From NCBI GenBank assembly GCA_051861545.1, contig JBIMKP010000022.1, positions 2,025 to 66,024 of the forward strand: a stretch of DNA of 64,000 nt, given 5' to 3'. Of the stretch, positions 6,948-57,166 are shown piece by piece (within the stretch, counting starts at the first letter, position 1; every line of letters starts with the position of its first letter). Position numbers and translations under genes: made by a program. The notes beneath the pieces are model-generated. The model saw only the letters and a list, made by a program, of their open reading frames with translations, was not told the origin of the DNA and ran no database searches. The stretch is from Bacteroidia bacterium. Lineage in GTDB: Bacteria; Bacteroidota; Bacteroidia; UKL13-3.

Positions 6948-7926
6948 TTAACAAAGCTCCAAGAAATATAATAGCAAACAGAATTAAGTTTACTAAAATT
7001 ATTCCAATCGCTTTTGAAATTGATTTGCCTGTACTTTCCTGAAACATATTAAAATGTGCTCTCAAAAAGTATAAGATTGTACAAATTCCTATTGCTCCAA
7101 TTAAATATGATCTTATTAAAAAATAGTTGTTTGTATCATGTCCTCCGCTAAACCAACCAACTATATTACCCAAAATTGTGTTTAAACATAAACTCAACAA
7201 TAAAAAGGAGAAAAAATGCAATGTAAATATGGCATGGTCGAAGTAAATATAGTTTTGCTTTCTATGAAATACTTGTATCACTAATGCAAATAATGGCAAG
7301 TATATAAAAAGTGATTTAGGAAAGTTTTTTCCAAAAGCACTTAAAAACATATCCCAAATTGTTTCAGGTGTATAATTTGCTAAATCAATTCCTTTTTTAT
7401 GTCCGATATATTCCAACCAAATCATTTCATCTTCTGTTCCTTCAAGAACTGTTCTTGCTGAATCCAATTGTTTATAATCCTTGTATTGGCTCGATAATAT
7501 CAATCCATAATCACTTATATACGACATTTCATTATTGGTAGCCTTTTTTATTGAATCTACCTCAGCCAAATAGTTTTTTCTATGACTTTTTTTGAGCTCA
7601 GGTTCTGTGTTTTCAGGTAATAAATGTGGCAATAAAAAGGTGAAAAAACTCACAAATATGTACAATCTAACAGGTGGTAAATAGGAGGTTCTTTTACCTT
7701 TTAAATATTCTATTGTTAAGTAAGCTGGTTTGAAAAACAAGTATTGTATTGTTTTCCAAAATTTTCCTTCATAGTGAGTTAAATCTTCTGCGAAATGGGC
7801 AAATAAGCCCAAAAAACTCATTCGGGTTTCTATATTTTCTTGCCCACAATGCCCACAAAATCTATCTTCAACTATGTTTCCACAGTTTAAACAAGTTTTA
7901 TCTTCTCTGGTTTGATGATGGCCCAT
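6925..7926 (-). CDS. DUF3667-like membrane protein with N-terminal zinc ribbon
   Basis: CLNCGNIVEDRFCGHCGQEN double CxxC motif followed by multiple TM helices. Confidence 0.6.
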   Translation of the reverse strand: MGHHQTREDKTCLNCGNIVEDRFCGHCGQENIETRMSFLGLFAHFAEDLTHYEGKFWKTIQYLFFKPAYLTIEYLKGKRTSYLPPVRLYIFVSFFTFLLPHLLPENTEPELKKSHRKNYLAEVDSIKKATNNEMSYISDYGLILSSQYKDYKQLDSARTVLEGTEDEMIWLEYIGHKKGIDLANYTPETIWDMFLSAFGKNFPKSLFIYLPLFALVIQVFHRKQNYIYFDHAIFTLHFFSFLLLSLCLNTILGNIVGWFSGGHDTNNYFLIRSYLIGAIGICTILYFLRAHFNMFQESTGKSISKAIGIILVNLILFAIIFLGALLITLMNLH

Positions 7927-13648: not shown

Positions 13649-15529
13649 ATGGCAGAAGAAAAAGTGATTTATGATGAAAACAGTATCAGGTCTCTCGATT
13701 GGCGCGAACATATTCGCCTGAGACCCGGAATGTATATCGGTAAACTAGGAGATGGAAGCTCTGTTGATGATGGTATTTATATCCTTTTAAAGGAGGTTAT
13801 CGATAATTGTATCGATGAATATGTAATGGGGAATGGAAAACAAATTGATATCAAAATTACTGATAACAAGGTTGTTGTAAGGGATTATGGTCGTGGTATT
13901 CCTCTTGGAAAAGTAATTGAATGTGTTTCTCAAATCAATACTGGTGGTAAGTACGATTCTGCTGCTTTTAAAAAGTCGGTTGGATTAAATGGAGTAGGAA
14001 CAAAGGCTGTGAATGCTTTGTCTATTTATTTCAAAGCACAATCTTTTAGAGATGGAAAAACAAAAATCGCTGAATTTGAAAAAGGTCAGTTATTGAAAGA
14101 ACACCCGCTACAAGATACTTTAGAGCCCAATGGAACTGCAATTACTTTTATTGCTGATGATACCATTTTTAAACATTTCAGGTTTATTAACGAGTACATC
14201 GAAAACATGATATGGAATTATGTTTACCTGAATGCTGGTTTAGTGGTTTGGTTCAACGACCAAAAATTCCTTTCAAAAGATGGTTTATTAGATTTATTAA
14301 AACGTAAAACCAATGAAGAAGCGCTTCGTTACCCAATTATTCATATTAAAGGTGAGGATATTGAAGTTGCTTTAACCCATGAAAATCAATATGGTGAAGA
14401 GTATTATTCATTTGTTAATGGTCAACATACTACCCAAGGTGGTACTCACTTAAATGCTTTTAGAGAAGCTTTTGCAAAAACAGTTCGTGAGTTCTATAAA
14501 AAGGATTTTGATTTGGCTGATATAAGAGCAAGTATTATTGCTGCTGTAAGTATTAGGGTTCAAGAACCGGTTTTTGAATCTCAAACCAAAACAAAATTGG
14601 GTTCAACAAATATGGCTCCAACTGAATCTATTTCAGTAAAACAATTTGTGATTGATTTTATGAAAAAGGCTTTGGATGATTACTTGCATAAACGTCCTGA
14701 TACCGCTGAAGCTCTTTTACGTAGAATTAATCAGAGTGAAAGAGAAAGAAAAGAAATGGCCGGTATTAAAAAATTGGCTAATGAAAGAGCTAAAAAGGCT
14801 AATCTTCACAATAAAAAATTAAGAGATTGCCGCATTCATTTCAATGAATCAAAAGACGAAAAGAAGTACAATACTACTTTGTTTATAACCGAAGGTGATA
14901 GTGCAAGTGGTTCTATTACCAAATCTCGTCAGGTTGAAACGCAGGCTGTATTTAGTTTAAGAGGTAAACCTTTAAACTGTTATGGTTTAACTAAAAAGGT
15001 AGTTTACGAAAATGAAGAGTTTAATCTTTTACAACATGCTTTAAACATCGAAGAATCAATTGAAGATTTAAGGTACAACCGCATTGTTATTGCAACTGAT
15101 GCCGATGTAGATGGAATGCATATTCGTTTGTTAATTCTTACTTTCTTCCTTCAGTTTTTTCCTGATTTAGTAAAAAATAACCACTTATATATTTTAGAAA
15201 CGCCTTTGTTTAGAGTAAGAAACAAACAAAAAACTTTCTATTGTTATAATGATGAGGAACGTCAGAAAGCTATCCATGTAATTGGTGCTAAAGCTGAAAT
15301 TACTCGTTTTAAAGGGTTGGGTGAAATTTCACCAGAGGAATTTGGTTTGTTTATTGGTGAAGACATGCGTTTGCAACCTGTTGTTCTTTTGAATGATATG
15401 CCGATACAAAAAATGTTGGAATACTACATGGGTAAAAACACTATGGATCGTCAAAATTTCATTATCGATAACCTAAGAATTGAAAAGGATATGGTTTACG
15501 AAATGGAAGTTGATGAGGAATTGGTTTAA
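13649..15529 (+). CDS. parE: type IIA topoisomerase B subunit (ParE-like, topoisomerase IV subunit B)
   Basis: 626 aa; GHKL ATPase and TOPRIM motifs (LHAGGKF-like GGKYD, EGDSASG). Confidence 0.8.
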
Positions 15530-15535
15530 CAAAAT

Positions 15536-16441
15536 ATGAGAATAGTATTTTTTGGAACTCCTGATTTTGCAGCACATTCACTTCAATCATTAATCAATGC
15601 TGGAGTGAATGTGGTTGCAGTTGTAACTGCACCAGATAAACCTGCTGGTAGAGGAATGAATCTTCAATCATCTGCGGTTAAAGTTTGTGCAGTAAAAAAT
15701 AATCTACCGGTTCTTCAGCCTGTCAAACTCAAAGACCCAGAATTTGTTCACGAATTAGCATCCTATCAAGCCGATTTACAAATTGTAATTGCATTCAGAA
15801 TGTTGCCTGAAATAGTTTGGAATATGCCTCCAAAAGGAACAATGAATCTGCATGCTTCTTTATTACCCGATTACCGAGGTGCTGCTCCAATTAATTGGGC
15901 AATTATAAATGGTGAGAAGAAATCGGGTGTTTGTACTTTTTTCCTAAAACATGAAATTGATACAGGTGATATTTTATTGAGTAGAGAAGTTGAAATTACA
16001 GAAACCATGAATGCTGGTGAACTTCATGACTTATTGATGCAAACTGGTGCTGAATTGGTAATTGAATCGGTTAGAAAAGTTGAATCAGGAAATTATTCTG
16101 GTATTCCTCAAGCTCAGTCATCCACAAAAACAGCCCCAAAAATTTTCAAGGAACATTGTTTGATTCATTTTAATCAGCCTGCTGAAAAGGTATATAATTT
16201 AATTCGAGGTATGAGTCCTTATCCGGCTGCATATTTTCAGTTAAACGGAAAAAATATGAAGGTTTTTAAAGCTGAAATTATAAAATCAAATCAAGTTTTA
16301 GAAGCTGGAAGTATAAAATCAGATGGAAAATCTTACCTCCAAATTCATTGTGCTGATGATTATATTAGATTATTAGAAGTGCAACCTGAATCGAAAAAAA
16401 GAATGAGTATTGAAGATTTTTTGAGAGGAAACAAGGTTTAA
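15536..16441 (+). CDS. fmt: methionyl-tRNA formyltransferase
   Basis: 301 aa; MRIVFFGTPDFA...NLHASLLPDYRGAAPINWAI. Confidence 0.9.
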   Translation: MRIVFFGTPDFAAHSLQSLINAGVNVVAVVTAPDKPAGRGMNLQSSAVKVCAVKNNLPVLQPVKLKDPEFVHELASYQADLQIVIAFRMLPEIVWNMPPKGTMNLHASLLPDYRGAAPINWAIINGEKKSGVCTFFLKHEIDTGDILLSREVEITETMNAGELHDLLMQTGAELVIESVRKVESGNYSGIPQAQSSTKTAPKIFKEHCLIHFNQPAEKVYNLIRGMSPYPAAYFQLNGKNMKVFKAEIIKSNQVLEAGSIKSDGKSYLQIHCADDYIRLLEVQPESKKRMSIEDFLRGNKV

Positions 16442-16477
16442 TTCAAATAGGATTTAATCACTTTTATAATCTATTTT

Positions 16478-16921
16478 TTATTTCCTCTTAGCATTGTTTG
16501 TTTCTTTGATATCGCTGTTTACCGAAGTAAAATTTGTCTGAATACTATCGCTTAAATTTTGTAAAAAGCTACGATAAGGTGGATTTTTTCTACTTCCAAA
16601 AGAACCATCATAATTTAGTTTAATTGTGAATTGATTGTCTTGTTGTTCAAGCCAAAATTTAAAATAATGGTAAGGACGTCCATAAAAGCCAAGAGTGTCT
16701 GAACCTTTAAAAGTATTGTCCTTAATTAATTGGTTTTTCTCTGCCAATTGCTTGATAAACTTAGTAGCAATCTCTTTTGAATTACTTTCTTTTGAATTGT
16801 TTTGAAAAGTATAAGTAGCAATATATTTTGTAGAATAAAAGCAAGATGACAAGGAAAGTATCATCACAAAGGCAAATATGTTAGATATCCAAAAAAGTAT
16901 TCCTGAAGCATTCTTATTCAT
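16478..16921 (-). CDS. hypothetical lipoprotein
   Basis: Signal sequence plus Cys (LSLSSC). Confidence 0.45.
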   Translation of the reverse strand: MNKNASGILFWISNIFAFVMILSLSSCFYSTKYIATYTFQNNSKESNSKEIATKFIKQLAEKNQLIKDNTFKGSDTLGFYGRPYHYFKFWLEQQDNQFTIKLNYDGSFGSRKNPPYRSFLQNLSDSIQTNFTSVNSDIKETNNAKRK

Positions 16922-16951
16922 CTGAATTTGTTATTATTTCTATTCTTCAAT

Positions 16952-17833
16952 TTATTTAGATTCAAAATGTTCAACGCAGATTTTAGCAATTTCTGCTATG
17001 ATTTTCTCATTGGTCTCCTCATTTTCTTTGCTATCTTTTACAAATACTGAAATAATCAAAATTTGACCATTTTTAAATGGAATTATTCCTACATCATTTA
17101 CCGCTTCAGTAATTCCTTTAGAATTTTGATCTGAAGTTCCTGTTTTATGTGCAACAATATATTTAGGTAGGAGGTAAGGAAGACGTTTGGCTCCCGTGTA
17201 ATTAATCGCCATGAATTCCAATAAAAGCCTTCTACTTTCTTCCGACAATATTTTATTGTTTTGTAAGGATTCAAGTATTGCTGTTATTGTTTTTAAATCT
17301 ACCCAGTTATCATAAATTCTTTCTCTTTTCTCATGTTTTTGTTGTTCTGTCCATTTCATGGAAATGCCTTTGAATCCTTCTTGATGAAAGAATTTTTCTA
17401 CAACAAGAGGAGAGCCAATCAGTTTAAATAAAAGATCACAGCTGTTGTTATCACTGTATGAAATAACATTGTTTAATAAATCAAAAATATTTACTTTACC
17501 TTTTTTTGATGGGAATTTTTCTATAAGAGGACCAAAGCTAGAAAAAATATCTTTTTCATCAAATTGAATTTCTTGTATTAATCTCAGATTACCTTCCTCA
17601 ACCTGTTTTAAGACATAAATTGCTAATGGTAATTTGTAAACGCTCATCATTGGAAATTTGGTTTCATTGAGTCGGTATAAACCATTTTTCTCCCCAATAA
17701 TTTTTACACCAACACCAATTTGAGCTTTGTAGTTTTTGCAGTACTCATCGAGTTTGATTTCCAATTTTGATTGCGAACATGAAATCAAAGATGAAGAACA
17801 AAACAAGATAAATAAGTAAATAATTTTATTCAT
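16952..17833 (-). CDS. class A beta-lactamase family serine hydrolase
   Basis: 293 aa; signal/lipobox; SVYK (SxxK), SDN and KTG motifs are all present. Confidence 0.8.
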   Translation of the reverse strand: MNKIIYLFILFCSSSLISCSQSKLEIKLDEYCKNYKAQIGVGVKIIGEKNGLYRLNETKFPMMSVYKLPLAIYVLKQVEEGNLRLIQEIQFDEKDIFSSFGPLIEKFPSKKGKVNIFDLLNNVISYSDNNSCDLLFKLIGSPLVVEKFFHQEGFKGISMKWTEQQKHEKRERIYDNWVDLKTITAILESLQNNKILSEESRRLLLEFMAINYTGAKRLPYLLPKYIVAHKTGTSDQNSKGITEAVNDVGIIPFKNGQILIISVFVKDSKENEETNEKIIAEIAKICVEHFESK

Positions 17834-18578
17834 GATTCAAGATAAACTTTAATCCTAATTCTCCATCAAATTCTATTTCTGAAAACAAATTCATTCCTAT
17901 TTTCTGTAACACTTTTGCTGATGAAGTATTTTCCTTTTTGCAGCGAGCAACAATTTGTTTGATGTCTAATATCTCAAAACCATATTTTAAAGTTGCTATT
18001 GCTGATTCTGTTGCATATCCCATATTCCAATATTCTTCAAGAAATCTGAATCCAATATCAGTTTCATTTAAATCTTCCTGAAATCTTAATCCACACCAGC
18101 CTAAAAATTGAGAATCTGTCTTTCTGTGAACAATCCATCTACATAGGGCCCGCTGAAAAAGACAGAAACAGGTCAGATTTTAGACGCTGCCAAATTAGAT
18201 GTATATATAATACTTCAATTTGGCAGCAACGACAAAGATGGCCTTGTTTCTGTCTTTAAGTTAATTGAAAACCAATTGTACTTAATGCAAGAATTTTTAA
18301 GTAATTGCTCTTAAAACCTTGCATTTAAATTATTAAATATAGTCTAATTGATTGATATTAAGTTCTAATAACGATTTTCAGCAGGCCTTACCTAATCCAT
18401 ATTTTGAATATTGCTCATAGTTTAAAATGAGTTCTTCTGCTTCCTGAATATTATTAAATGGCTTGTCACCTGTAAATTTTAATACATTCGGATTGGAATT
18501 TAATCGAAACAAATCTGGCGCATCATCTAAGGTCCATTCTCTTAAAATCAATCTTTCTGTTTCAGTAATAATTTTCAT
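17826..18578 (-). pseudogene. GNAT (RimJ/RimL-type) acetyltransferase split by MITE insertion
   Basis: N-terminal part (18578 to 18389: MKIITETERLILREWTL...YGLG) and C-terminal part (18145 to 17826: RWIVHRKTDSQFLGWCGLRF...GYATESA...) are separated by the 243-bp element. Removing the element plus one TSD copy restores YGLGRWIV in frame. Confidence 0.75.
18146..18388 (-). mobile_element. MITE-like palindromic element, copy 1 (reverse orientation)
   Basis: About 90% identical to the copies at 32423 and 50559; TIRs GGGCCCGCTGAAAA / TTTTCAGCAGGCC; flanked by TACATA / TACCTA (TSD TAGGTA with one mismatch). Confidence 0.8.
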
Positions 18579-19378
18579 TTTTTCAAACCAATCAAACTAT
18601 AAGCCATAGGAATTTCATGATTTAAACTTTTGATGGTAAACCTTCCTTTTTCAAGTTCTTGCGTATTTTTAAAACAAGGATAGGGTGAAAACGCATATTC
18701 CTTAAAGTCTAAAATTTCTATTTTTTGTTTGATTAATGCTTGAAATACTTCAGACAAAGAATGATTCCAACAAACATATTTCTGCTGAATATCTGCATCT
18801 CTATTGGCATAAGTACCAGATTCCGTTTCAATAATTTCACCTTTGTTAAAATATGAATATGCAATTTTTTTAAAATCATCATCAAACATCCAAACCACAG
18901 GATGAAATTCAACAAAAATGAATTGTCCGCCTGGTTTTAACATTTGTTGTATAACATCAGCCCATTTATCTAAATCGGGTAACCAACCAATTGTTCCATA
19001 ACTTGTATAAACAATATCAAATTGTTCTTTTAAAACTTCAGGTACAGAATAAACATCAGTGCATATAAACCTACAAGGAATATTCATTGCAGAAGAAATT
19101 TCCTTAGCTTTTTCAATAGCTTTATCAGATAAATCTATGCCAGTAACTTCAGCACCTAATCGTGCTAGAGAAAGACTGTCTTGACCAAAATGACATTGTA
19201 AATGAAGGATTTTTTTGCCTTTGATATCACCCAATAAAGCTAATTCAATTTCCTTAAGAGAGTTGTCGCCTTTAGCAAATCCGGCCATATCATAAAAATC
19301 AGATTCAAGATGTATATCAACCTTGTTATTCCATGATTTTTGGTTCAAATCCAGGTAATTGTCATATTCATTTTCCAT
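18575..19378 (-). CDS. class I SAM-dependent methyltransferase
   Basis: 267 aa; motif I ILHLQCHFGQDSL, motif post-I VTGIDLS. Confidence 0.75.
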   Translation of the reverse strand: MENEYDNYLDLNQKSWNNKVDIHLESDFYDMAGFAKGDNSLKEIELALLGDIKGKKILHLQCHFGQDSLSLARLGAEVTGIDLSDKAIEKAKEISSAMNIPCRFICTDVYSVPEVLKEQFDIVYTSYGTIGWLPDLDKWADVIQQMLKPGGQFIFVEFHPVVWMFDDDFKKIAYSYFNKGEIIETESGTYANRDADIQQKYVCWNHSLSEVFQALIKQKIEILDFKEYAFSPYPCFKNTQELEKGRFTIKSLNHEIPMAYSLIGLKK

Positions 19379-24304: not shown

Positions 24305-24327
24305 AAGGGGCAATTGCCCCTTTTTTA
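24305..24327 (-). terminator. intrinsic terminator of rnpB
   Basis: GGGGCAATTGCCCC perfect hairpin flanked by A7/T6 runs. Confidence 0.8.
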
Positions 24328-24328
24328 C

Positions 24329-24701
24329 AAAATCATAAGCCGGGTTCTGTTATTAAACATTGCTGTTTAATTGGCTATCATTTCTCTTGGCCTGACGTTG
24401 CCATCAGGCTCTAGCAGTCTACCCACCTCAATATAATTTCCGAAGAAATTAAGCAAACGAGCAGTTTGACGATTGAGGCCTATTTGACCTTGCAACCCAT
24501 AAGGTTTACATTGCCTTCTTTATCACTAAAGAAGCGGTGGGCTCTTACTCCACCATTTCACCCTTACCAATTTAAATAAATAAACTGGCGGTATACTTTC
24601 TGTTGCACTTTCTGTATTTCTTGCGAAATCCTGTCTGTTAGGCAGTATGGTGCTCTGTGTTGCCCGGACTTTCCTCTGATTACTCAGCGATAACCGATTT
24701 T
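24329..24701 (-). ncRNA. rnpB: RNase P RNA, bacterial type A
   Basis: Minus-strand transcript contains GAGGAAAGUCCGGGC (P4), ACAGAAAGUGCAACAGAAA, GGUAAGGGUGAAAUGGUGGAGUAAGAGCCCACC (P10-P12) and the 3' ACAGAACCCGGCUUAU (P4 3' strand), all universal RNase P RNA signatures. Confidence 0.85.
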
Positions 24702-24716
24702 GCTTGACAAAGGTAA

Positions 24717-26934: not shown

Positions 26935-27231
26935 ATGGCTCATTTTATGGTTGAAATGTTCTTACCCGAAATTCTGGATATGGAGTTTATGCAGATGATT
27001 CCATCACATAGAGCCTATGTAGATCAATTGATTTCTGAAGGTAAAATTCTTACTTATACTGTAAACGAAGAAAGAACCAAAGGCTGGATTATTTTTGATG
27101 CAGAAGAAGCCGAGGAGGTTTTAGATATTGTTCAACAATTTCCTATCAACAGATTTTTAACCTTTGAAATACATTCATTAATGATTCATGATGGAGAAGC
27201 TTTTAGATTCCCCAAACTTCATTTGAATTAA
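26935..27231 (+). CDS. hypothetical small protein (possible dimeric alpha/beta-barrel, muconolactone-isomerase-like)
   Basis: MAHFMVEMFLPEIL... resembles the MLFHVKM N-terminus of muconolactone isomerase family; weak. Confidence 0.35.
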   Translation: MAHFMVEMFLPEILDMEFMQMIPSHRAYVDQLISEGKILTYTVNEERTKGWIIFDAEEAEEVLDIVQQFPINRFLTFEIHSLMIHDGEAFRFPKLHLN

Positions 27232-27650
27232 TCTAAAAATGTAATTTTAAAATCAATCGGACAAACCATACTTAACATGGCACTAACTCCACAATATTTG
27301 TCCTTGGATAATTCGACTGCTTTCAACATTTTTTCTTCATCCTCTTTTTTTACTTTGATTTTATATTCCAAGTAAATTCGGGTATAAATTTTCGGATGTT
27401 CATCTCGCAAATCAGCTTTAACATTCAAAGCAAAATCACTAAAATCTACCCTCATTTTCTGCAATAAACTCACAATATCCATTCCTGTGCAAGCGCCTAA
27501 TGAGCTTAATATAAGTGCTTTTGGTCTTGGGCCTTTATCCTTTCCTCCACCAGATTCTGAGGAATCAATTGTTAAATGATGTCCATCTATAATTGAATCA
27601 AATTCAAAGCCTTCTTTCCAGCTGGTTTCTACTTCATGTAAAGTTGACAT
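27228..27650 (-). CDS. OsmC/Ohr family peroxiredoxin-like protein
   Basis: LGACTGMDIV and KYCGVSAM two-Cys motifs. The start was chosen at the internal Met (MSTLHEV); the ORF-track N-terminal extension overlaps the upstream gene. Confidence 0.75.
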   Translation of the reverse strand: MSTLHEVETSWKEGFEFDSIIDGHHLTIDSSESGGGKDKGPRPKALILSSLGACTGMDIVSLLQKMRVDFSDFALNVKADLRDEHPKIYTRIYLEYKIKVKKEDEEKMLKAVELSKDKYCGVSAMLSMVCPIDFKITFLD

Positions 27651-27651
27651 A

Positions 27652-27864
27652 TTATATACTTGTTTCTTTTTTTTCTTTGGCTTTAAATCCATCACCCGCA
27701 ATTGCTCCCATAAACAATCCATAAGCAGAACTTCTATAAGGATTTGAAGTAATTGCACATGTACCATCAGCACAACCAACAAAATACCAATAAGCTAGTC
27801 CAGCAAATCCTCCAATTACTGCTCCAATAATTGTTGTTTTATGTTTAAATATAAATTCCTTCAT
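27652..27864 (-). CDS. small membrane protein with CADGTC motif
   Basis: 70 aa; two hydrophobic segments with glycine-zipper character. Confidence 0.5.
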   Translation of the reverse strand: MKEFIFKHKTTIIGAVIGGFAGLAYWYFVGCADGTCAITSNPYRSSAYGLFMGAIAGDGFKAKEKKETSI

Positions 27865-27897
27865 CTAATAAAATATTATGTTTTTTCTTGATTCTTT

Positions 27898-29280
27898 TTA
27901 TTTGGGGATTACCAACAAATAACCTGCTTCTTTAATTTTATTTATTCCTCCATGCACATTTTTAACATGATTGAATCCATGTTTTTTCATCATTGAACTT
28001 GCCATCATACTTCTGTAACCACCAGCACAATGGATCAAATATTTCTTATTAGGATTTAAATTTTCTAATGCTTTTTCAAGTTTTGAAAGTGGAATTAACT
28101 CAGCACCTTCAACAAAACCATTACTCCATTCTGATGGATTTCTAACATCAATTACAGTTGGATTTTCTATTCCTAATTCTTCTGCGAAAACTTCAGGTTC
28201 AATGCTTTCAACTACTTCAATATTTTTGCCAGCTTTAATCCATGAATCAAAACCACCATCTAAATAACCAAAAACATGTTCATAACCAACTCTTGCCAAT
28301 CTTAGAATTGCTTCTTTTTCTTTTCCTTCATCTGCAATTACAATAATTGGTTTTCCATGGTCGATTAACGAACCTACCCACACTGCATATTGTCCTTCTA
28401 ATCCAATATTTATTGAGCCAGGAATAAAACCTTTTTCAAAAATTTCTGCGGTTCTTGCATCTAAAATTATGGTGCCTTTTTCAATTTCTTCAACTACTTG
28501 TTCAACTCTTAATGCAACAGCATTTCTGCTCATTACTTCATCAATATTTCTATAGCCTTTTTTGTTAATTGCTGCATCAATAAAAAAGTATTTTGGTGGC
28601 TCATCTAATCCGCTTGCTACTTTTTCAACAAATTCTTCCTTGGTTTCACAAGCCAATGCATAATTTGATGTTCTTTGAATACCAATGGTGGTTGATGTTT
28701 CTTTCCCAATGTTTTTACCGCATGCCGAACCAGCACCATGTCCAGGATAAACAATAACATCATCATGTAAAACCATCAATTTGTCATAAATTGAATCATA
28801 TAATAAACCTGCTAAATCTTCTTTTGATAAATCTGATTTTACTGCTAAATCAGGTCTTCCAACATCACCTGCAAACAATGTATCTCCGGTAAATACAGCA
28901 TGATTATTTCCATTTTCATCAATCAGTAATAAACATGATGATTCTAATGTATGTCCAGGTGTATGTAATAATTTTAGTTGGATATCACCAAGTTTAAATA
29001 CTTCACCATCTTGTGCTACATACATGTTAAATTCTGAAACAGCGCTTGGTCCATATACAATTGTTGCTCCAGTTTTAGCAGCTAAATCAATATGACCCGA
29101 TACAAAATCTGCATGAAAATGAGTTTCAAAAACATATTTTATTTTGGCATTTCTTTGCTCAGCTATTTCAATATATGGACTAGTTTCTCTTAAAGGATCT
29201 ATAATTGCAGCTTCACCATTACTTTCTATATAATAAGCTGCTTCGGCTAGACAATTGGTGTATAATTGTTGAATGTACAT
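27898..29280 (-). CDS. MBL-fold metallo-hydrolase fused to rhodanese domains (persulfide dioxygenase-like)
   Basis: 460 aa; HFHADFVSGH metal-binding motif; C-terminal rhodanese Cys loop (HCAGGYRS). Confidence 0.8.
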   Translation of the reverse strand: MYIQQLYTNCLAEAAYYIESNGEAAIIDPLRETSPYIEIAEQRNAKIKYVFETHFHADFVSGHIDLAAKTGATIVYGPSAVSEFNMYVAQDGEVFKLGDIQLKLLHTPGHTLESSCLLLIDENGNNHAVFTGDTLFAGDVGRPDLAVKSDLSKEDLAGLLYDSIYDKLMVLHDDVIVYPGHGAGSACGKNIGKETSTTIGIQRTSNYALACETKEEFVEKVASGLDEPPKYFFIDAAINKKGYRNIDEVMSRNAVALRVEQVVEEIEKGTIILDARTAEIFEKGFIPGSINIGLEGQYAVWVGSLIDHGKPIIVIADEGKEKEAILRLARVGYEHVFGYLDGGFDSWIKAGKNIEVVESIEPEVFAEELGIENPTVIDVRNPSEWSNGFVEGAELIPLSKLEKALENLNPNKKYLIHCAGGYRSMMASSMMKKHGFNHVKNVHGGINKIKEAGYLLVIPK

Positions 29281-29393
29281 AAGATTTAAATTTTATTCAA
29301 AGCTTTAAAATACATGTAAAATTAGGTTGATAGGCATCAAGTAATTTTATGATTTTAATTTTGATTGAATGTAATACTGCTTTCAAAACCAAA

Positions 29394-29711
29394 TCAATAA
29401 TTACAATTACACTTATCCATTAAATTTATAACAGCACATAGTTCCTTCTCCTTTAAACTATATATAACTTTAGTTCCTTCTTTTTTGGCCAAAAGAATTC
29501 CTTTTAGTTTCATGTTTATTAAATGGTGTGAAATTAATGATTGTTCGCAATTCGTTTCTAAACATATTTCACTAACTGTACTTGGACCATTATCATTTAA
29601 AAAACTAATAATTGCCAATCTGGTAGGATGAGCAATTGTTTTAAGAATAAATGCTGCTTTTTCTAGTTTTTTTGTTTCAATCATAATTCTTATGTACAAA
29701 TATATGAACAT
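29394..29711 (-). CDS. ArsR/SmtB family transcriptional regulator
   Basis: HPTRLAIISFL...STVSEICLETNCEQSLISHHL winged-HTH; several Cys residues. Confidence 0.75.
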   Translation of the reverse strand: MFIYLYIRIMIETKKLEKAAFILKTIAHPTRLAIISFLNDNGPSTVSEICLETNCEQSLISHHLINMKLKGILLAKKEGTKVIYSLKEKELCAVINLMDKCNCNY

Positions 29712-29769
29712 ATATTCATATAAGCAAGAGGCTATAATATCTCATCCCAAGTATTGGAAACATTGAAGT

Positions 29770-30927
29770 ATGAGGCTAAATTCCGTTATTTGTAAGCATA
29801 TGAACATTGGATTTGACGCAAAAAGAGCTTTTCATAATAAAACGGGTTTGGGTAACTATAGCCGTAGTTTTATTAAAGCTTTAATTGATGAAAAGTCTGA
29901 TAATCAATTATATTTATTTACACCTGAGATTGGTGACTTAGGTCAGGAGTTTTTAAATAAACATGATGTAAAAATCGTTATACCCACAAAAAAAATCCAT
30001 CAGTTTTTGCCCACTTATTGGAGAAGTCATGGTTTATTAGACGAAATTAAAAGGGATAAAATTCAGATTTTTCATGGCTTAAGTAATGAATTACCTGTTG
30101 GAATTGAAAGGTTAGCTATTAAAAAAGTGGTTACAATTCATGACTTAATTTTTTTAAGGTTTCCTGAATTATATCCTCCCATTGATAGGAGAATTTATGA
30201 AAGAAAGTTTAAATCGGCAGTAGTAAGAGCTGATAAAATTTTTGCATGTAGTCAGCAAACCTCTACGGATATTCAAGAGTTTTATGGTATAGATGAATCT
30301 AAAATTGAAGTAGTTTATCAGGATTGTGGAATTCATTTCAGGAAGAAACATTCTGATGATGAAAAAAACTCTTTTCTACTTAAACATCAATTACCACAAA
30401 AGTTTATTCTTAGTGTTGGTACCCTAGAAAAACGTAAAAATCAATTGTTACTATTGAAAGCCTTTCATGAGGCAAACTTGCAAGATAACAGTTTAATATT
30501 TTTAGGAAAAAAGGCCGATTTATATTCAGATATGTTGCAATATGTAAGGTTAAATGGCCTTCAAAACAAGGTATTTTTTTTAGATAAAATAGAAGAGGAG
30601 GAGCTACCAATTTTATATCAATCGGCTTTTGCGTTTGCTTATATTAGTAAATTTGAAGGGTTTGGAATTCCAATACTCGAGGCTTTAAGAAGTGGAGTTC
30701 CAGTGCTTAGTTCTAAACAATCAAGTTTACCAGAAGTTGCGGGAAATGCGGCTTTGTATTCTGATTTTAATGATGCCGAAACACTTATTTCCAATTTAAA
30801 GGAAATTTCAGGAAATCCTGAATTACGCTTTAAATTAATAAATTTAGGATATGCTCAAGCTTCTAAATTTGATTCAGATAAAATTGCTAAACAGGTGATT
30901 TCTAATTACGAAGGACTCTTATTATAA
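29770..30927 (+). CDS. glycosyltransferase family 4 (GT-B)
   Basis: EGFGIPILEALRSGVPVL EX7E-type motif; the real start is possibly Met at 29800. Confidence 0.8.
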   Translation: MRLNSVICKHMNIGFDAKRAFHNKTGLGNYSRSFIKALIDEKSDNQLYLFTPEIGDLGQEFLNKHDVKIVIPTKKIHQFLPTYWRSHGLLDEIKRDKIQIFHGLSNELPVGIERLAIKKVVTIHDLIFLRFPELYPPIDRRIYERKFKSAVVRADKIFACSQQTSTDIQEFYGIDESKIEVVYQDCGIHFRKKHSDDEKNSFLLKHQLPQKFILSVGTLEKRKNQLLLLKAFHEANLQDNSLIFLGKKADLYSDMLQYVRLNGLQNKVFFLDKIEEEELPILYQSAFAFAYISKFEGFGIPILEALRSGVPVLSSKQSSLPEVAGNAALYSDFNDAETLISNLKEISGNPELRFKLINLGYAQASKFDSDKIAKQVISNYEGLLL

Positions 30928-30991
30928 AGATTATCCAAACTTCAATCATAATAAAACAAAGAGAGTCTATGGCTTTTTATATTTTTGTGAT

Positions 30992-32413
30992 GTGAAAATT
31001 GATTTAAAAGATAGAATTTTTGATGATTTAAGAATTGTAGCAGAAAAAACTGGTATAGAAGCCTATGTAGTAGGTGGATTTGTTCGCGATATTTTTTTAG
31101 AAAGAACTTCAAAAGATATAGATATAGTAGTTGTTGGAAACGGGATAGATTTTGCAAAGGAATTTTCGGAACATATTGGAAGTTCAAGCGATTTTGCTGT
31201 TTTCAAAAACTTTGGAACTGCAATGGTAAGGTGCAATGATTGGGAAGTTGAATTTGTTGGTGCCCGCAAAGAAAGTTATTCAAGAAACAGCAGAAAACCA
31301 GAGGTGAGTCCTGGTACATTAAAAGAAGACCAATCAAGAAGAGATTTTACAATAAATGCATTAGGTATCAGTCTAAATAAGAATGATTTTGGCACTTTAT
31401 TAGACCCATTTCATGGATTAGATGATTTAAAAAGAAAGATTCTAAGAACACCTTTAGAACCAGGAATTACTTTCGATGATGATCCATTAAGAATGATGCG
31501 AGCAGTTCGTTTCGCCTCTCAATTAAACTTTGATATTTTACCTGAAACTTTTGATTCAATTAAAAAGCATAAAGACAGAATCAAAATTGTTTCTTTTGAA
31601 AGAATTATTGAAGAATTAAATAAAATTATTCTTTCTAAAAAACCTTCAATAGGATTGAATTTATTGTTTGAATGTGGCTTATTAGAGATAATTTTTCCAG
31701 AACTAAAAGCATTACATGGGATTGATTATGTGAATGGTAAAGGTCATAAAGACAATTTTTATCATAGCTTACAAGTGCTCGACCAAGGTTCAGAAGAAAC
31801 AAATGATTTGTGGTTAAGGTGGGCTTTATTACTACATGATATTGGAAAGCCTGTAACTAAAAAATTCATTCCTCAAGAAGGCTGGACATTCCATGGTCAT
31901 GAAGACAAGGGAAGCAGAATGATTTCAAAAATATTCAGAAAGTTAAAATTACCTCTGAATGAAAAAATGAAATATGTAGAAAAATTGGTTGCATTACACC
32001 ACCGTCCTAAAGCATTGGCTGAAGATGGAGTAACTGATGCTGCTATAAGAAGATTAATAGTTGATGCCGGCGAAGATTTAAACGACTTGTTCTTATTGTG
32101 CAGAGCTGATATGACTACTAAAAGTCAGGATAAATTAAACAAGTACAGAGGTAATTTATTAAAAGTTCAGGAACTGGTTGTTGAAGTTGAAGAAAGAGAT
32201 GCGTTACGAAATTGGCAACCACCAGTAAGTGGTGAAGATATTATGGCATATTTTGGCTTGGAACCTTCTAAAATAATCGGAATTATAAAGGAAGAAATTC
32301 GGGAATCAATTTTAGAAGGTAAGATTAAAAATGAGCGCGAAGCTGCAATACAGTTGATGAAAGATCTTGGCGAAATTCATCAGCTAAAGCCAATTGGAAT
32401 AAGTTTGAATTAA
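30992..32413 (+). CDS. cca: CCA tRNA nucleotidyltransferase / HD-domain protein
   Basis: GGFVRD nucleotidyltransferase motif; RDFTINAL; HD motif LLHDIGKP. Confidence 0.8.
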   Translation: MKIDLKDRIFDDLRIVAEKTGIEAYVVGGFVRDIFLERTSKDIDIVVVGNGIDFAKEFSEHIGSSSDFAVFKNFGTAMVRCNDWEVEFVGARKESYSRNSRKPEVSPGTLKEDQSRRDFTINALGISLNKNDFGTLLDPFHGLDDLKRKILRTPLEPGITFDDDPLRMMRAVRFASQLNFDILPETFDSIKKHKDRIKIVSFERIIEELNKIILSKKPSIGLNLLFECGLLEIIFPELKALHGIDYVNGKGHKDNFYHSLQVLDQGSEETNDLWLRWALLLHDIGKPVTKKFIPQEGWTFHGHEDKGSRMISKIFRKLKLPLNEKMKYVEKLVALHHRPKALAEDGVTDAAIRRLIVDAGEDLNDLFLLCRADMTTKSQDKLNKYRGNLLKVQELVVEVEERDALRNWQPPVSGEDIMAYFGLEPSKIIGIIKEEIRESILEGKIKNEREAAIQLMKDLGEIHQLKPIGISLN

Positions 32414-32422
32414 CATTATTTA

Positions 32423-32665
32423 GGGCCTGCTGAAAATCTTTATTAGAACTTATTATCAATCAATTAGATTGTGTTTAAATAATTTAAATGCAAGGTTTTA
32501 AGAACAATGGCTAAAAATCCTTGCATCAAGTAAAATTAGTTTTCAAATTAAATAAAGACAGAAACAAGGCCATCTTTGTCGTTGCTGCCAAATTGAAGTA
32601 TTATATATACATCTAATTTGGCAGCGCCTAAAATCTGACCTGTTTCTGTCTTTTTCAGCAGGCCC
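32423..32665 (+). mobile_element. MITE-like palindromic element, copy 2
   Basis: TIRs GGGCCTGCTGAAAA...TTTTCAGCAGGCCC; perfect 6-bp TSD TATTTA on both sides (32417..32422 and 32666..32671). Confidence 0.85.
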
Positions 32666-32748
32666 TATTTATGATGGAATTGTAAATTTTGATTTAATCA
32701 TTGATTTTCACTTGGAAAAATCGCATATTAGCAGTAAATACTGATTAA

Positions 32749-50542: not shown

Positions 50543-50558
50543 ATCACTAACTAATGTA

Positions 50559-50802
50559 GGGCTTGCTGAAAATCTAAATTAGCACTAATTATCAATCAAT
50601 TGAATTAGTTTTTTATAAATCACGGGAAAGGTTTTAAGAACAATTGCTTAAAAATCCTTGCATCAAGTAAAATTAGATTTCAAATTACCTAAAGACAGAA
50701 ACAAGGCCATCTTTGTCGTTGCTGCCAAACTGAGGTATTATTTATACATCTATTTTGGCAGCGTCTAAAATCTGACCTGTTTCTGTCTTTTTCAGCGGGC
50801 CC
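50559..50802 (+). mobile_element. MITE-like palindromic element, copy 3
   Basis: TIRs GGGCTTGCTGAAAA...TTTTCAGCGGGCCC; 7-bp TSD TAATGTA (50552..50558 and 50803..50809); lies 16 bp upstream of the start codon of the 50108..50542 gene. Confidence 0.85.
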
Positions 50803-51027
50803 TAATGTAAATTTATCGGTCTTAAATGGAAACATATGTCTGTTATCTTGGGCTTAAATCTAAGGTTTTTTAGCTAGACGAAGTGGTTGACTTTGATGCA
50901 CCTACTTTCAATTTGGCATATAATCCGATAATTTGCCAAACTGCGGTTAAAGTTTTGGGCTCAATTTCGGTTAAGATTATTTTTTATTTTCCTGTTCTTC
51001 AAAATTGTTAAAGTATGTAAAAGGCAT

Positions 51028-51690
51028 TTAAAGGGCCTGTTTGCGGTAAGCTTTAACGGCTCGTTTAAGCGCTTTTTCAATATTTTTAAAGTTTACATGT
51101 TGGCTTTTACTGTACATGTTTCTATCCCAATGTACTTGCTGTCCGTTAATAAAGCTTAGGCCATTTTCATCAAATACACAAAACAATATAGTTAGCGTAT
51201 TCTGCATAAACAAAATTTGGCCCGGTGGAGAAGTTACACCTTCATATGCTGAAAAATTTAGGATAGGTAACATGTGCGCTTGAGTTACTGAGTAATTTTT
51301 ACTTAACGAATCGAGCAATGGCTTAAAAAATAACTTATCACTAACAACACTTAGAGGTGCTGCTTGCACCGTAAAAGGTTTAATCTTAAAAAGAATATCA
51401 TTATTTAAGGCTGTAAAAAGGTGTTTAATAATGGTATCTCTATAGAAGGTATCATTAAGTAATATTCTTTGGCCAGTTTTATTGGTAGCTATATGGTTTA
51501 TAAGCCCACAATAAATCACCTGATTTGTGATTAAAGGCTTAGCAGACATTGCTTGGCTATGTTTCAGATTAAAACGTCTGTAAGCGATATTTTTATTATT
51601 GCAAGCCACCAATAGCATCAAGCAAATAAGTGCAACATAGTGGCTTTTAAAAACCAATTTATTATTCAATAGATAGATTTTCGGTATCAT
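51028..51690 (-). CDS. hypothetical lipoprotein
   Basis: Lipobox LLVAC; 220 aa. Confidence 0.5.
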   Translation of the reverse strand: MIPKIYLLNNKLVFKSHYVALICLMLLVACNNKNIAYRRFNLKHSQAMSAKPLITNQVIYCGLINHIATNKTGQRILLNDTFYRDTIIKHLFTALNNDILFKIKPFTVQAAPLSVVSDKLFFKPLLDSLSKNYSVTQAHMLPILNFSAYEGVTSPPGQILFMQNTLTILFCVFDENGLSFINGQQVHWDRNMYSKSQHVNFKNIEKALKRAVKAYRKQAL

Positions 51691-51728
51691 TATTTAAAAT
51701 GGCTTATATCGTTTTATATATTTGTTTT

Positions 51729-51826
51729 TGGCCGGCGTTTATAATCAAATGTATATATGGGAAACGAATTAATCAACCAATAAAATCGCATTAGAAGGAG
51801 AGGTATTGCATTTAAATTGTTATATT
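51729..51826 (-). promoter_or_regulatory. conserved upstream module A (promoter plus conserved ~50-bp upstream sequence)
   Basis: One of four similar ~100-bp modules; on the minus strand it reads TTGATTAATTCGTTTCCCATATATACATTTGA, i.e. -33 TTG / -7 TAnnTTTG. Confidence 0.5.
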
Positions 51827-51839
51827 GAGTTTTCAATCG

Positions 51840-52331
51840 TTAGTGCGAGCTACCGAAATATTTTTTCTCATCAAGGTCATAATAAGCAAATACAGAATTG
51901 CATTGCCATCCAACGGCATTAATACTTTTTGTTCTATTTTTGGTTATAACACCGATTTCCTTATATCTAACTCCTATCCAAGCTCGTCTTTTTTCTTGAG
52001 GAATGGTTTGGATGTCCTTAGTTTTATAGAATTGTATCAAATTGTTAATTGGTATTGATTTTACTTTATCAAAAGCCCAATTCGTCTCGTAAATAATTAT
52101 AGTTGTAATTAAGATATATGTAAAAAATATTGATGTAATAATTATGACTTTAATATATCGTGGTCTTAACCCGAAAAAATCATAAGCTTTATAGCCATAG
52201 AATATACCAATTCCAATTATCCCGTAAAGTGGTAGATATATTATAATGTCAAAGTCCATTTCTAACCCAATTATTGTCATCATAGATATGATAAATAAAT
52301 ATGTTAAAAGATATTTGATGGTTTTTGCCAT
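51840..52331 (-). CDS. hypothetical membrane protein
   Basis: 163 aa; 3 TM helices plus C-terminal soluble part. Confidence 0.5.
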   Translation of the reverse strand: MAKTIKYLLTYLFIISMMTIIGLEMDFDIIIYLPLYGIIGIGIFYGYKAYDFFGLRPRYIKVIIITSIFFTYILITTIIIYETNWAFDKVKSIPINNLIQFYKTKDIQTIPQEKRRAWIGVRYKEIGVITKNRTKSINAVGWQCNSVFAYYDLDEKKYFGSSH

Positions 52332-52378
52332 TTTTTTTGTCGTTTTTATAATACCCTATAACTTTTTGCACATTTGCT

Positions 52379-52480
52379 TTGGACCTGCGTTTAAACTCAA
52401 ATGTAAATAGGGGAAAAGAATTAATCAACCTCTAAAATCTGTAAAACGGAGAGGTAATGCCAGTAAATTGTAATTGTGTG
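52379..52480 (-). promoter_or_regulatory. conserved upstream module B
   Basis: GCGTTTAAACTCAAATGTAAATAGGGGAAAAGAATTAATCAAC...; most similar to modules C and D. Confidence 0.5.
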
Positions 52481-53524: not shown

Positions 53525-54130
53525 TTATAGGTTGTTAATGTCTTTGTTTAAAAGATAAAACTCCTTATCATAATTATCTATCAGTTTCTTATCCAAGTTA
53601 AGTTGTTTGACTGTCTTGCCAGTTGAATAGTTTTGTAATGATACAATTTTGCCATTTAGTATATCAATACTTAAGGTGTCGAAAAATTTATCAGTCGGTA
53701 ATTGAGATGTCTGAAAAACAACTGTTTTGTTGTTTGTTGTTTTACAAGCATAAATCATATACTCAGTATTTGAAACAAACTCGTAGGAGTAGTCTGTAAT
53801 AGTGAATATATGTTGAGTAATCTCTTTATTTTTATTGTCTTTCGATTTCAATTTATGAAGTCCCTTCAAATAATAAATAGTTGCACTAAGCACTGAAAGA
53901 CCAGCTAATACAGGTTTTAAATACACTGAGGGCGTGATTAGTCCGAACTTTTCGGAAATAAGTAAAAGTACCATTAGTCCGAAGAATGTTAGCACGCCAA
54001 TTATTACGCTGTCACTAAGTGCTTTTTTTCTTAAATGTTCTTTTTGCTTTTTTAAGTCAGCAAGTACAGAAGATGATAGACTTTTCTCAACTATTTTCAT
54101 TCGTAATTTTTGGCATTTTTGGTTTGACAA
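53525..54130 (-). CDS. hypothetical membrane protein
   Basis: 201 aa; two TM helices then a soluble domain; the start is possibly MKIVEK at 54109. Confidence 0.5.
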   Translation of the reverse strand: MSNQKCQKLRMKIVEKSLSSSVLADLKKQKEHLRKKALSDSVIIGVLTFFGLMVLLLISEKFGLITPSVYLKPVLAGLSVLSATIYYLKGLHKLKSKDNKNKEITQHIFTITDYSYEFVSNTEYMIYACKTTNNKTVVFQTSQLPTDKFFDTLSIDILNGKIVSLQNYSTGKTVKQLNLDKKLIDNYDKEFYLLNKDINNL

Positions 54131-54175
54131 GATTGATTGTTAAAACTTGTCGATAGGGTTTTGATTATTTGTTAT

Positions 54176-54284
54176 TGGCCAGCGATTATACTCAAATGTA
54201 AATAGGGGAAAGGAATTAATCAACTAGTAAATCCCGTTAAACAGAGACGAATTGCACACCTATTGTAATTGTACTCTGTACTCT
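54176..54284 (-). promoter_or_regulatory. conserved upstream module C
   Basis: GCGATTATACTCAAATGTAAATAGGGGAAAGGAATTAATCAAC...GAGACGAATTGCACACCTATTGTAATTGT. Confidence 0.5.
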
Positions 54285-55631: not shown

Positions 55632-57005
55632 TTACATCAAATCAATTATTTTATCTGCTTCTCTAATGCCACTTAAGTATGCTCCGTGTGCGGTTGAAAA
55701 ATAGTCGGCTTCGGTGTGTTCGCCTGCAAAGAATAATCTATCGTTAATTTCTTCTGCCAAGTCTTCAAAATGGCGCATTTCTGTACCAATTTGAGTGAAA
55801 GAATAAGCTCCGAATGAATTTACATTCGTTTGCCATTTAGTTCTCAGCATATTGGTAGGATTAGGAATACTATTTCCATAAATATCTTTTAAATGAGCCA
55901 TTATTTCGTCTATTATTTGTGCATCCGTCATTGATTCTGTCTGCCTTGCATAATTTGAATATGCAAAAGTCATTAAACCATTTAGGCTTGGGTGAAATTT
56001 TTTAACATTCACAAAATAGTTGAACTTATCTCTTGTTTCTGGTGTGTAACAAATGTATTGTTCATTGTCCCAAAATGCAGTATTCCAAGTAAGTAAAAAT
56101 TTATTGACGCAATTCATACCAACTTTTTGAATAGCTGTTTGTTTAGCTGTAGGCAATGTTGGAACAAATTGTATAGTGCCTGATTTTAAAACTCCCAGTG
56201 GAACGGTTACCAATACATAATCAGCTTCTGTGATAGTTTCATTATGTGTAATCTTTGCCTTAGAGTTTGAATAATCAATTTTTGAAACTCGTTGATTAAG
56301 TTGAATATTTAATCCCTCTGCTAAAAAAAATGGAATAGTGTCATATCCATTCGTTGAAATTCTTTCTTCTCCTGTAAACTCTTCGCCTTCATCATACAAT
56401 GTTGAGGAAACTTTATCTAATTCGCCTAAATCAAATGTTACATAAGTAGATAATAAAAATTTCCAAAGTCTATCATTTACTTTTGTTGGGTGCAAGCTAT
56501 TAAAAACAGTTTCAAAACTTTGGTTTGCACTTCCGCTATTTTTAAGAGTACTTAAAATGGTTTGTAATTCTGTTTCGGCATTATCAAATGCTGTGTCGCT
56601 TCTCAAAACGCCACTAATATCATAGCACACTAAACTTTCATCATCAGTGAAAGCTGTGTTCATTCCTGCTTGTTGAGCCAAATTTGTGATTGGGTTTCCA
56701 TTTGTTCCGTGTATCCAACTTGCTCCTTCGTCAAAAGCAAAGCCAAGAGATCGATTAGTTCGTAATCGTCCACCCACTTTATCTTGTGCTTCTAACACAA
56801 TTATATTGAAACCTTTTTCTTTCAGTTTTTTTGCTGCTGCTAAACCTGAAATTCCTGCTCCAATAACTACAACTGTTTTTCCGTTTGGTTCGTGGTCTTC
56901 ATCTTTATTACAAGAACTTGCTAAAATTGAAGGTGCGATAAGAAAAATTTGTAAACCTGTTAAGGAGTCTTTTATAAATTTTCTTCTTTCCATTTTTTTG
57001 TCCAT
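55632..57005 (-). CDS. flavin-containing amine oxidase family protein with Tat/lipoprotein-type signal
   Basis: RRKFIKDSLTG twin-arginine segment; VVVIGAGISGLAAAKKL dinucleotide-binding motif; amine-oxidase C-terminal FFAGEHT. Confidence 0.8.
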   Translation of the reverse strand: MDKKMERRKFIKDSLTGLQIFLIAPSILASSCNKDEDHEPNGKTVVVIGAGISGLAAAKKLKEKGFNIIVLEAQDKVGGRLRTNRSLGFAFDEGASWIHGTNGNPITNLAQQAGMNTAFTDDESLVCYDISGVLRSDTAFDNAETELQTILSTLKNSGSANQSFETVFNSLHPTKVNDRLWKFLLSTYVTFDLGELDKVSSTLYDEGEEFTGEERISTNGYDTIPFFLAEGLNIQLNQRVSKIDYSNSKAKITHNETITEADYVLVTVPLGVLKSGTIQFVPTLPTAKQTAIQKVGMNCVNKFLLTWNTAFWDNEQYICYTPETRDKFNYFVNVKKFHPSLNGLMTFAYSNYARQTESMTDAQIIDEIMAHLKDIYGNSIPNPTNMLRTKWQTNVNSFGAYSFTQIGTEMRHFEDLAEEINDRLFFAGEHTEADYFSTAHGAYLSGIREADKIIDLM

Positions 57006-57067
57006 ATTTTAGTTTGTTCATGGTGTTTCGCTATAATAGCATTCAATGTTTTTAGCGCTTCTGCGAT

Positions 57068-57166
57068 GGTTGTGCGTTTATGCTCAAATGTAAATAGGGG
57101 AAAGGAATTTACCAACCACTAAAATCCCTTTAAATGGAGACGAATTGCATGCCTATTGTGAATGTG
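57068..57166 (-). promoter_or_regulatory. conserved upstream module D
   Basis: GCGTTTATGCTCAAATGTAAATAGGGGAAAGGAATTTACCAAC...GAGACGAATTGCATGCCTATTGTGAATGT; about 80% identical to module C. Confidence 0.5.

Follow-up and report, generated by a model that had tools for sequence, protein, structure and literature searches.

The DNA analyzed here, 64,000 nt of contig JBIMKP010000022.1 from a Bacteroidia bacterium (hereafter the window), carries on its minus strand, between the genes for a methyltransferase and a beta-lactamase, a putative acetyltransferase gene of the RimJ/RimL type (GNAT) which is divided into two halves by a repeated element of 243 bp. [quoted passage not shown] The features of the interrupted gene and of the element, in window coordinates, are the following.

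17826..18140, minus strand: C-terminal half of the GNAT gene, codons 64-167 and the stop codon (17826-17828); open frame RWIVHRKTDSQFLGWCGLRF...LNHE
18141..18146: left copy of the target duplication, TACATA, one base different from the right copy
18144..18159, plus strand: left terminal inverted repeat (TIR), TAGGGCCCGCTGAAAA; the first TA in it doubles as the last two bases of the target duplication
18147..18389, plus strand: MITE copy 1, 243 bp, non-coding, GGGCCCGCTGAAAA...TTTTCAGCAGGCCT, aligned with two other copies in the window
18375..18390, minus strand: right TIR, TAAGGCCTGCTGAAAA on the minus strand, which gives the GNAT frame the codons K-A-C-TGA (18389..18378)
18390..18395: right copy of the target duplication, TACCTA (TAGGTA on the minus strand), within the codons for L62-G63-R64
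18390..18578, minus strand: N-terminal half of the GNAT gene, codons 1-63, beginning with an ATG of its own (18576-18578); the open reading frame (ORF) continues to a TGA at 18378-18380 (66 aa)

The N-terminal ORF (18578..18378, minus strand) reads MKIITETERLILREW...NYEQYSKYGLG, followed by KAC and a stop codon. Because its final four codons, AAG GCC TGC TGA (18389..18378), fall inside the right TIR, this TGA is supplied by the element, as had been proposed in the initial annotation of this DNA. The same annotation described both halves as intact ORFs. This is accurate as far as decay is concerned, of which no sign was found, but the C-terminal half is an open frame with no ATG, GTG or TTG before Met103, and the ORF listed for it comprises just 17826..18023 (65 aa).

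Deletion of nucleotides 18141-18389, that is, the 243 bp of the element and 6 bp of duplication, generated a frame of 504 nt coding for 167 aa with the junction YGLG/RWIV. Both the length of the element (18147-18389) and the in-frame restoration of YGLGRWIV had been predicted correctly. The accompanying statement that one copy of the 6-bp duplication is to be removed restores the frame but needs refinement, since the two copies are not identical (TACATA and TACCTA): the invariant Gly63 is recovered only if the copy at 18390-18395 is kept, the other copy giving a cysteine at this position.

The restored protein matched the Pfam profile Acetyltransf_3 (PF13302) over its full length (positions 1-138 of 138), with an E-value of 4.7e-32 and 112 bits against a cut-off of 25.4. 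This match, together with the RimJ/RimL family names given to its orthologues by their sources, which are names at the family level, likens the predicted protein to the RimJ/RimL-type GNATs. It differs from them in that the gene is disrupted here and that no NCBIfam equivalog reached its cut-off with the restored sequence; the assignment as read from the sequence is one of family level. Look-ups of the exact proteins returned no record of the 66-aa fragment or of the adjoining methyltransferase.

A homologue search of a large protein collection with the restored GNAT yielded 1353 homologues, of which the top five share 90, 87, 82, 75 and 74% identity with it and have a length of exactly 167 aa each; all 120 homologues listed are single proteins of approximately 162-192 aa. 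In an alignment of 12 sequences the insertion point is ungapped, and G61, G63, R64 and W65 do not vary. The uninterrupted gene for a 167-aa GNAT was found on four related contigs, L001-L003 (92.5% nucleotide identity over the gene) and L004 (90.5%), the encoded proteins being 87-90% identical to the restored one. The contigs of the two best homologues are syntenic with the window, with an overall DNA identity of 77-95%. The gene order is methyltransferase, GNAT, class A beta-lactamase, hypothetical protein and fmt in L001-L003, and GNAT, methyltransferase, GNAT, hypothetical protein, fmt and parE in L004. At the insertion site the orthologues read GGATTAGGG or GGATTAGGC followed by AGGTGG, and the window reads GGATTAGGT, then the element, then AGATGG. 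The initial annotation had pointed to orthologous loci as the place to look for the uninterrupted allele, and the idea that relatives carry two separate genes at this position fails with the continuous gene of these four contigs.

The limits of the element were set by aligning its three copies in the window: the similarity begins and ends exactly at GGGCC...GGCCC, and the outermost bases of copy 1 are GGGCC...GGCCT. The 16-nt TIR, with the consensus TAGGGCCYGCTGAAAA, is present at both ends of all three copies, and the two TIRs of copy 1 are 88% complementary. A 40-mer from the element occurred three times in the 64-kb window (18152, 32620 and 50757) and not once in 100 shuffled sequences. Scanning the window for the TIR gave six matches, against 0.04 expected, arranged as three inward-facing pairs 243-244 bp apart. 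The two further copies are both intergenic and are flanked by perfect duplications.

32423..32665, minus strand: MITE copy 2, 243 bp, with the 6-bp duplication TATTTA at 32417-32422 and 32666-32671; the orthologous site in the related locus L006 is empty
50559..50802, minus strand: MITE copy 3, 244 bp, with the 7-bp duplication TAATGTA at 50552-50558 and 50803-50809

The species-representative genomes were scanned once with a 23-mer from the element, which retrieved 29 loci. These loci hold 31 copies beyond the window (25 complete and six cut or incomplete) and come from five metagenome-assembled genomes (MAGs): four deposited as "Bacteroidia/Bacteroidetes bacterium", from lakes and a pond, and a set of contigs labelled Vulcanococcus limneticus. 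Together with those of the window, 28 complete copies share common ends; 14 of the 28 are flanked by perfect duplications of 6-7 bp and seven more by duplications with one mismatch, and almost all duplications are of the form TA-N2-3-TA. No copy codes for a protein, as stops occurred in the frames read and no ORF is conserved.

Size variants of 332, 243, 233, 177 and 164 bp have both termini in common, the copies spanning 164-333 bp. By locus, the variants are found in L006, L014, L016 and L030 (332-333 bp), L012 (233 bp), L033 (176 and 177 bp) and L032 (164 bp). The 332-bp form corresponds to the 243-bp form with 88 bp added exactly in the apical loop of an inner hairpin described below, these 88 bp being themselves able to form a hairpin; the shorter forms are internal deletions in the variable half of the element.

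With 22 of the 28 copies, no open frame spans the junction once the element is removed, making copy 1 the less common, intragenic case. In L012 (6003-6235), L033 (3918-4094), L013 and L029, removal of the element with 6 or 7 bp leaves open frames of 220, 287, 273 and 895 codons, respectively, which may be additional cases of disrupted genes or of insertion close to the end of a gene. Pairs of copies in the same orientation, approximately 180-300 bp apart, were seen in L015 (191-434 and 617-860) and in L033 (3918-4094 and 4397-4572), and such closeness points to local hopping or to an AT-rich zone in which the element prefers to land.

Four of the retrieved loci, L013, L014, L029 and L033 (CALRIT020000006, 08, 20 and 03, of 70-297 kb), were deposited under the name of a picocyanobacterium, "MAG: Vulcanococcus limneticus LL", and carry the Bacteroidia MITE. 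Their GC content is 30-33%, for which reason they are probably mis-binned Bacteroidia DNA. As far as sampled, the MITE family occurs only in uncultured low-GC freshwater Bacteroidia. Searches of viral contigs and of phage and plasmid collections yielded no copy of it. Rfam, searched with the whole window at gathering thresholds and with the element at E<=10, gave no credible match to the element, only chance miRNA-type matches on its hairpin.

Evidence of mobility was provided by locus L006, from a Lake Mendota MAG, which is 97.3% identical to window positions 27229-32416. At the position of window copy 2, the intergenic spacer of L006 is uninterrupted and is as long as that of the window once restored. 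Conversely, L006 carries a 332-bp copy (7567-7898) flanked on both sides by TAGATTA at a site where the window has a single TAGATTA and no element.

27229..27235: unoccupied target, TAATCTA on the plus strand (TAGATTA on the minus strand), at which L006 holds the 332-bp copy

This empty target lies at the stop codon of the window ORF 27228-27782 (minus strand). The insertion in L006 exchanges the TAA stop for a TAG, made of the duplication and the first G of the element, and leaves the protein unchanged.

Filled and empty sites are thus reciprocal between close relatives, and therefore the family has transposed since their divergence. The same sites fix the size of the duplication. A duplication of TA only, as for IS630 or Tc1-mariner elements and for Correia-like elements, was considered and is ruled out by the restoration of the frame and by the empty sites: removing the element with a single TA would leave 4 extra nucleotides and break the GNAT frame. 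A duplication of 6-7 bp of a TA..TA target, and TIRs that include the TA combined with a 2-3-bp duplication in a TA..TA target, look alike by sequence, and the events may have been of either kind. With its TIRs, target duplications, multiple copies, size variants, lack of coding capacity and reciprocal empty and filled sites, the element was rightly named a MITE at the outset; it has every MITE feature examined, a parent insertion sequence (IS) being the exception.

The split GNAT gene has accumulated no stops or frameshifts. Its comparison with orthologues gave ratios of non-synonymous to synonymous substitutions (dN/dS) of 0.24 and 0.20, close to the 0.165 obtained for a pair of intact orthologues. 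In the conserved half of the element, copy 1 shows no difference from the family consensus (0/84), and the only sign of change after the insertion is the single mismatch in its duplication. Because the split gene has not decayed and the conserved half of copy 1 matches the consensus, the insertion is recent relative to the approximately 8% divergence from the nearest orthologue. The initial claim of a recent event is in agreement with these results.

The interrupted gene lies in a cluster of five co-oriented genes (positions 20627 to 16952), in the order methyltransferase, GNAT, methyltransferase, GNAT and beta-lactamase, whose stops and starts abut or overlap and which is conserved in relatives. 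The immediate neighbors are as follows.

16952..17833, minus strand: class A (A2-like) beta-lactamase gene, directly downstream of the GNAT gene, with an overlap of 8 nt between its ATG and the GNAT stop (ATGAATAA); Pfam Beta-lactamase2, 2.5e-34
18575..19378, minus strand: gene for a methyltransferase dependent on S-adenosylmethionine, upstream of the GNAT gene, with an overlap of 4 nt between its stop and the GNAT start

The product predicted from 16952..17833 is a class A beta-lactamase: it scored 216.8 bits with the NCBIfam model bla_class_A (cut-off 200) and 254.4 bits with that of subclass A2, which is under the cut-off of 320, and its translation has the motifs SVYK (SxxK), SDN and KTG. 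Of the earlier view of the locus as a beta-lactamase/modifying-enzyme operon, the beta-lactamase part therefore stands, this gene alone having a specific assignment. That the five genes form an operon we infer from their co-orientation and from the overlap of stops and starts, and "modifying-enzyme" is a conjecture, because the GNATs and methyltransferases match generic models only. In the orthologous L004 cluster the class A beta-lactamase of the window is missing. L001 and L002 (2184-3797) have an additional gene between the hypothetical gene and fmt, not seen in the window, which codes for a 537-aa TonB_C/Fib_succ_major protein.

The course of events may have been the following. In the window lineage a synonymous codon pair, GGT-AGA, would have created the target TAGGTA, which fits the target pattern of the family; the TAGGGA and TAGGCA of the orthologues do not fit it. 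A DDE-type transposase acting in trans would then have recognized the 16-nt TIRs, made a staggered cut of 6-7 bp at the TA-N2-3-TA target and joined the element, and repair of the gaps would have duplicated the target. The gene is now split into 63 N-terminal residues, followed by K-A-C and the TGA of the element, and 104 C-terminal codons which are open without a start. The acetyltransferase would be inactive.

Translation now stops approximately 560 nt upstream of the beta-lactamase start, and translational coupling to this gene, if any, would be lost. Expression of the beta-lactamase has probably been lowered or uncoupled, given that the ATG of this gene overlaps the stop of the GNAT gene and now follows approximately 560 nt of untranslated, strongly structured RNA. 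Such RNA may also reduce transcription downstream.

Copy 1 folds far more stably than shuffled sequences, with z-scores of -10.3 for the plus strand and -9.3 for the minus strand, and a nested hairpin dominates its fold.

18158..18257, plus strand: conserved nested hairpin of approximately 100 nt, with an outer stem at 18158-18170/18245-18257 (13 bp, perfect) and an inner stem at 18186-18196/18217-18227 (11 bp, perfect)

When 20 copies of standard length were compared with the consensus, 0-4 of 84 positions differed in columns 30-113, which were chosen outside the 23-mer used to find the copies, against 4-25 of 117 in columns 114-230. Among the copies themselves, the divergence is approximately 3% in the hairpin half and approximately 13% in the other half. 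Paired columns carry substitutions at half the frequency of unpaired ones; of 26 variant pair cells, none is compensatory and 19 break the pair. A consensus scan of the element called no terminator and found promoter-like sites at the level of shuffled sequences, and the element has no Bacteroidetes -7 box TAnnTTTG.

The most economical reading of this pattern is that the hairpin half is required in cis for transposition, so that descendants come only from master copies which have kept it. The divergence of approximately 3% against approximately 13%, across genomes which themselves differ by 3-20%, also suggests that the hairpin half could be a module relevant to the host, either a mobile terminator or insulator or a small-RNA gene, and that the insertion before the beta-lactamase was a selected regulatory switch and not a simple knockout; this we consider quite improbable. 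A related explanation, in which the hairpin has a function as a cis-element or as a small RNA, for example that of a terminator, attenuator or processing site, and the insertion is a regulatory rewiring under selection through which the beta-lactamase is uncoupled from the genes upstream of it, would account for the roughly 4-fold better conservation of this half, for the lower substitution frequency of paired columns and for the very stable fold (z about -10), and would agree with the UUUUUC which follows the hairpin on the GNAT-sense RNA. It is nevertheless unlikely: none of the variant pairs is compensatory and most disrupt pairing; neither an Rfam family, nor a terminator call, nor promoter enrichment, nor a TAnnTTTG box is associated with the element; the 332-bp variant accommodates its 88 extra bp in the apical loop; and the copies, intergenic for the most part, stand in no fixed relation to genes. 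The conservation of half an element is equally well explained by what transposition demands in cis of master copies.

Two explanations would dispense with an insertion into a gene altogether. Repeats often cause mis-joins, and the interruption could be an assembly artefact in which the repeat was wrongly joined into the GNAT gene; short-read contigs do break inside the element. One of these, the Logan contig L034 (SRR30785882), begins inside the element and is 100% identical to window positions 15100-18172 over 3073 bp, and it repeats the junction on the C-terminal side exactly, including the TATGTA copy of the duplication. SRR30785882 may be the source sample of the window itself, so that L034 is a separate assembly but not necessarily an independent sample. 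No second assembly covers the junction on the N-terminal side. An artefact is very improbable all the same, since a chimeric join would not create a 6-bp target duplication, the flanking duplication is exactly of the type found in 21 of 28 family members, and the frame is restored to the nucleotide with no gene sequence lost. The other explanation, a GNAT encoded naturally by two genes with the repeat merely in the spacer between them, could appeal to the start and stop which the N-terminal half has of its own; it is effectively refuted by the single-protein form of all 120 homologues listed, the continuous genes of the syntenic orthologues, the missing start codon of the C-terminal half and the position of the split within the invariant G-x-G-R-W motif.

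A MITE insertion remains the preferred reading, and some observations weigh against it. No autonomous element with matching TIRs was found in the window or in approximately 250 kb of fetched loci, and, with no autonomous parent carrying a transposase, the transposition chemistry is one that we infer. The mismatch in the duplication of copy 1 may be either a mutation after the insertion or the product of an imperfect event. On the N-terminal side, the neighboring Logan contig, which was reached through look-ups of the next two upstream genes, ends in the methyltransferase gene approximately 700 bp before the element. An empty-site allele of the same strain was not obtained: a scan of metagenome contigs for the exact allele gave no matches and has no weight, as a control 29-mer, a flank sequence catching both alleles and known to be present in the JGI contig L002 (3300034121 Ga0335058_0012518), also gave none, the metagenome collection evidently lacking such contigs. 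Polarity on the beta-lactamase has against it that neither a canonical terminator nor the Bacteroidetes -7 box was detected in the element.

The search for a parent covered pairs of TIRs 450-4000 bp apart in all loci. Candidates in L016 were rejected, as the TIR pairs enclose housekeeping genes, and a candidate in L031 was rejected as a solo TIR beside an ordinary ORF which is not a transposase. This TIR-like sequence, TAGGGCACGCTGAAAAAGAAAGAAAATAGCCC (L031, 4904-4935), directly follows the stop of a 316-aa ORF, which, judging by its translation, may encode a transcriptional regulator, and has no partner end; it is a remnant or belongs to a diverged subfamily.

Some features of the window lie apart from the MITE. 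A conserved sequence of approximately 110 nt is present in four copies, 62-75% identical, between positions 51695 and 57200 (51712-51825, 52364-52477, 54159-54272 and 57051-57164). Each copy is located directly upstream of a minus-strand gene (51028-51690, 51840-52331, 53525-54130 and 55632-57005, respectively), and the copies contain TACATTTG, in agreement with the -7 promoter box of Bacteroidetes (TAnnTTTG). This arrangement suggests a promoter or leader that is common to a set of co-regulated genes. A bacterial RNase P RNA of class A, at full length and with 264.8 bits, was identified at 24324-24702 (minus strand), and no other Rfam family reached its gathering threshold in the window; tRNA genes were found nowhere in the 64 kb.

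MITEs known from bacteria include the Correia elements of Neisseria, the pneumococcal RUP, the enterobacterial ERIC/IRU and the cyanobacterial Nezha. The family described here resembles bacterial MITEs in general in its size (approximately 100-400 bp), its lack of coding capacity, its TIRs and target duplication, its many dispersed copies and its strong predicted structure, as well as in being mostly intergenic with occasional disruption of a gene. It differs from them in the far stronger conservation of one of its halves. No sequence similarity to Correia, RUP, ERIC or Nezha elements was indicated by the Rfam, phage and plasmid searches, and the duplication of 6-7 bp at TA-N2-3-TA contrasts with the TA duplication of Correia and IS630-type elements.

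Within the Bacteroidota, the MITEs of Porphyromonas gingivalis (MITE239, MITE464/PgRS, MITE700 and BrickBuilt) have TIRs and duplications and occur in approximately 10-20 copies per genome; their TIRs (GAGACC..., ACGTCAG...) match ISPg elements of the IS5 family, which are candidate parents, and prokaryotic MITEs have been described as almost exclusively intergenic (PMC4596501). The copies found in this work share the TIRs and duplications and are likewise mostly intergenic, but their TIRs are unrelated to those of P. gingivalis, a candidate parent IS is available there and none was found here, and the hosts are a freshwater Bacteroidia lineage and not an oral anaerobe. The family could not be matched to any that has been described; the event itself, the disruption of a gene by a MITE, is an ordinary one.

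Since MITE insertions into genes are known, no concept is changed by this finding, and its functional consequence is modest, namely the loss of one generic acetyltransferase and a possible polarity on the beta-lactamase. What the locus offers is a clean case of gene inactivation by a MITE, resolved to the base pair, in a tight gene cluster of an uncultured freshwater Bacteroidia lineage, for which uninterrupted orthologues and reciprocal sites are available. The family, defined by its TIR, its TA-N2-3-TA target, the 6-7-bp duplication and its size variants, would allow better annotation of MAGs, as the element breaks short-read contigs, and the element may be used as a strain-level marker in lake populations.

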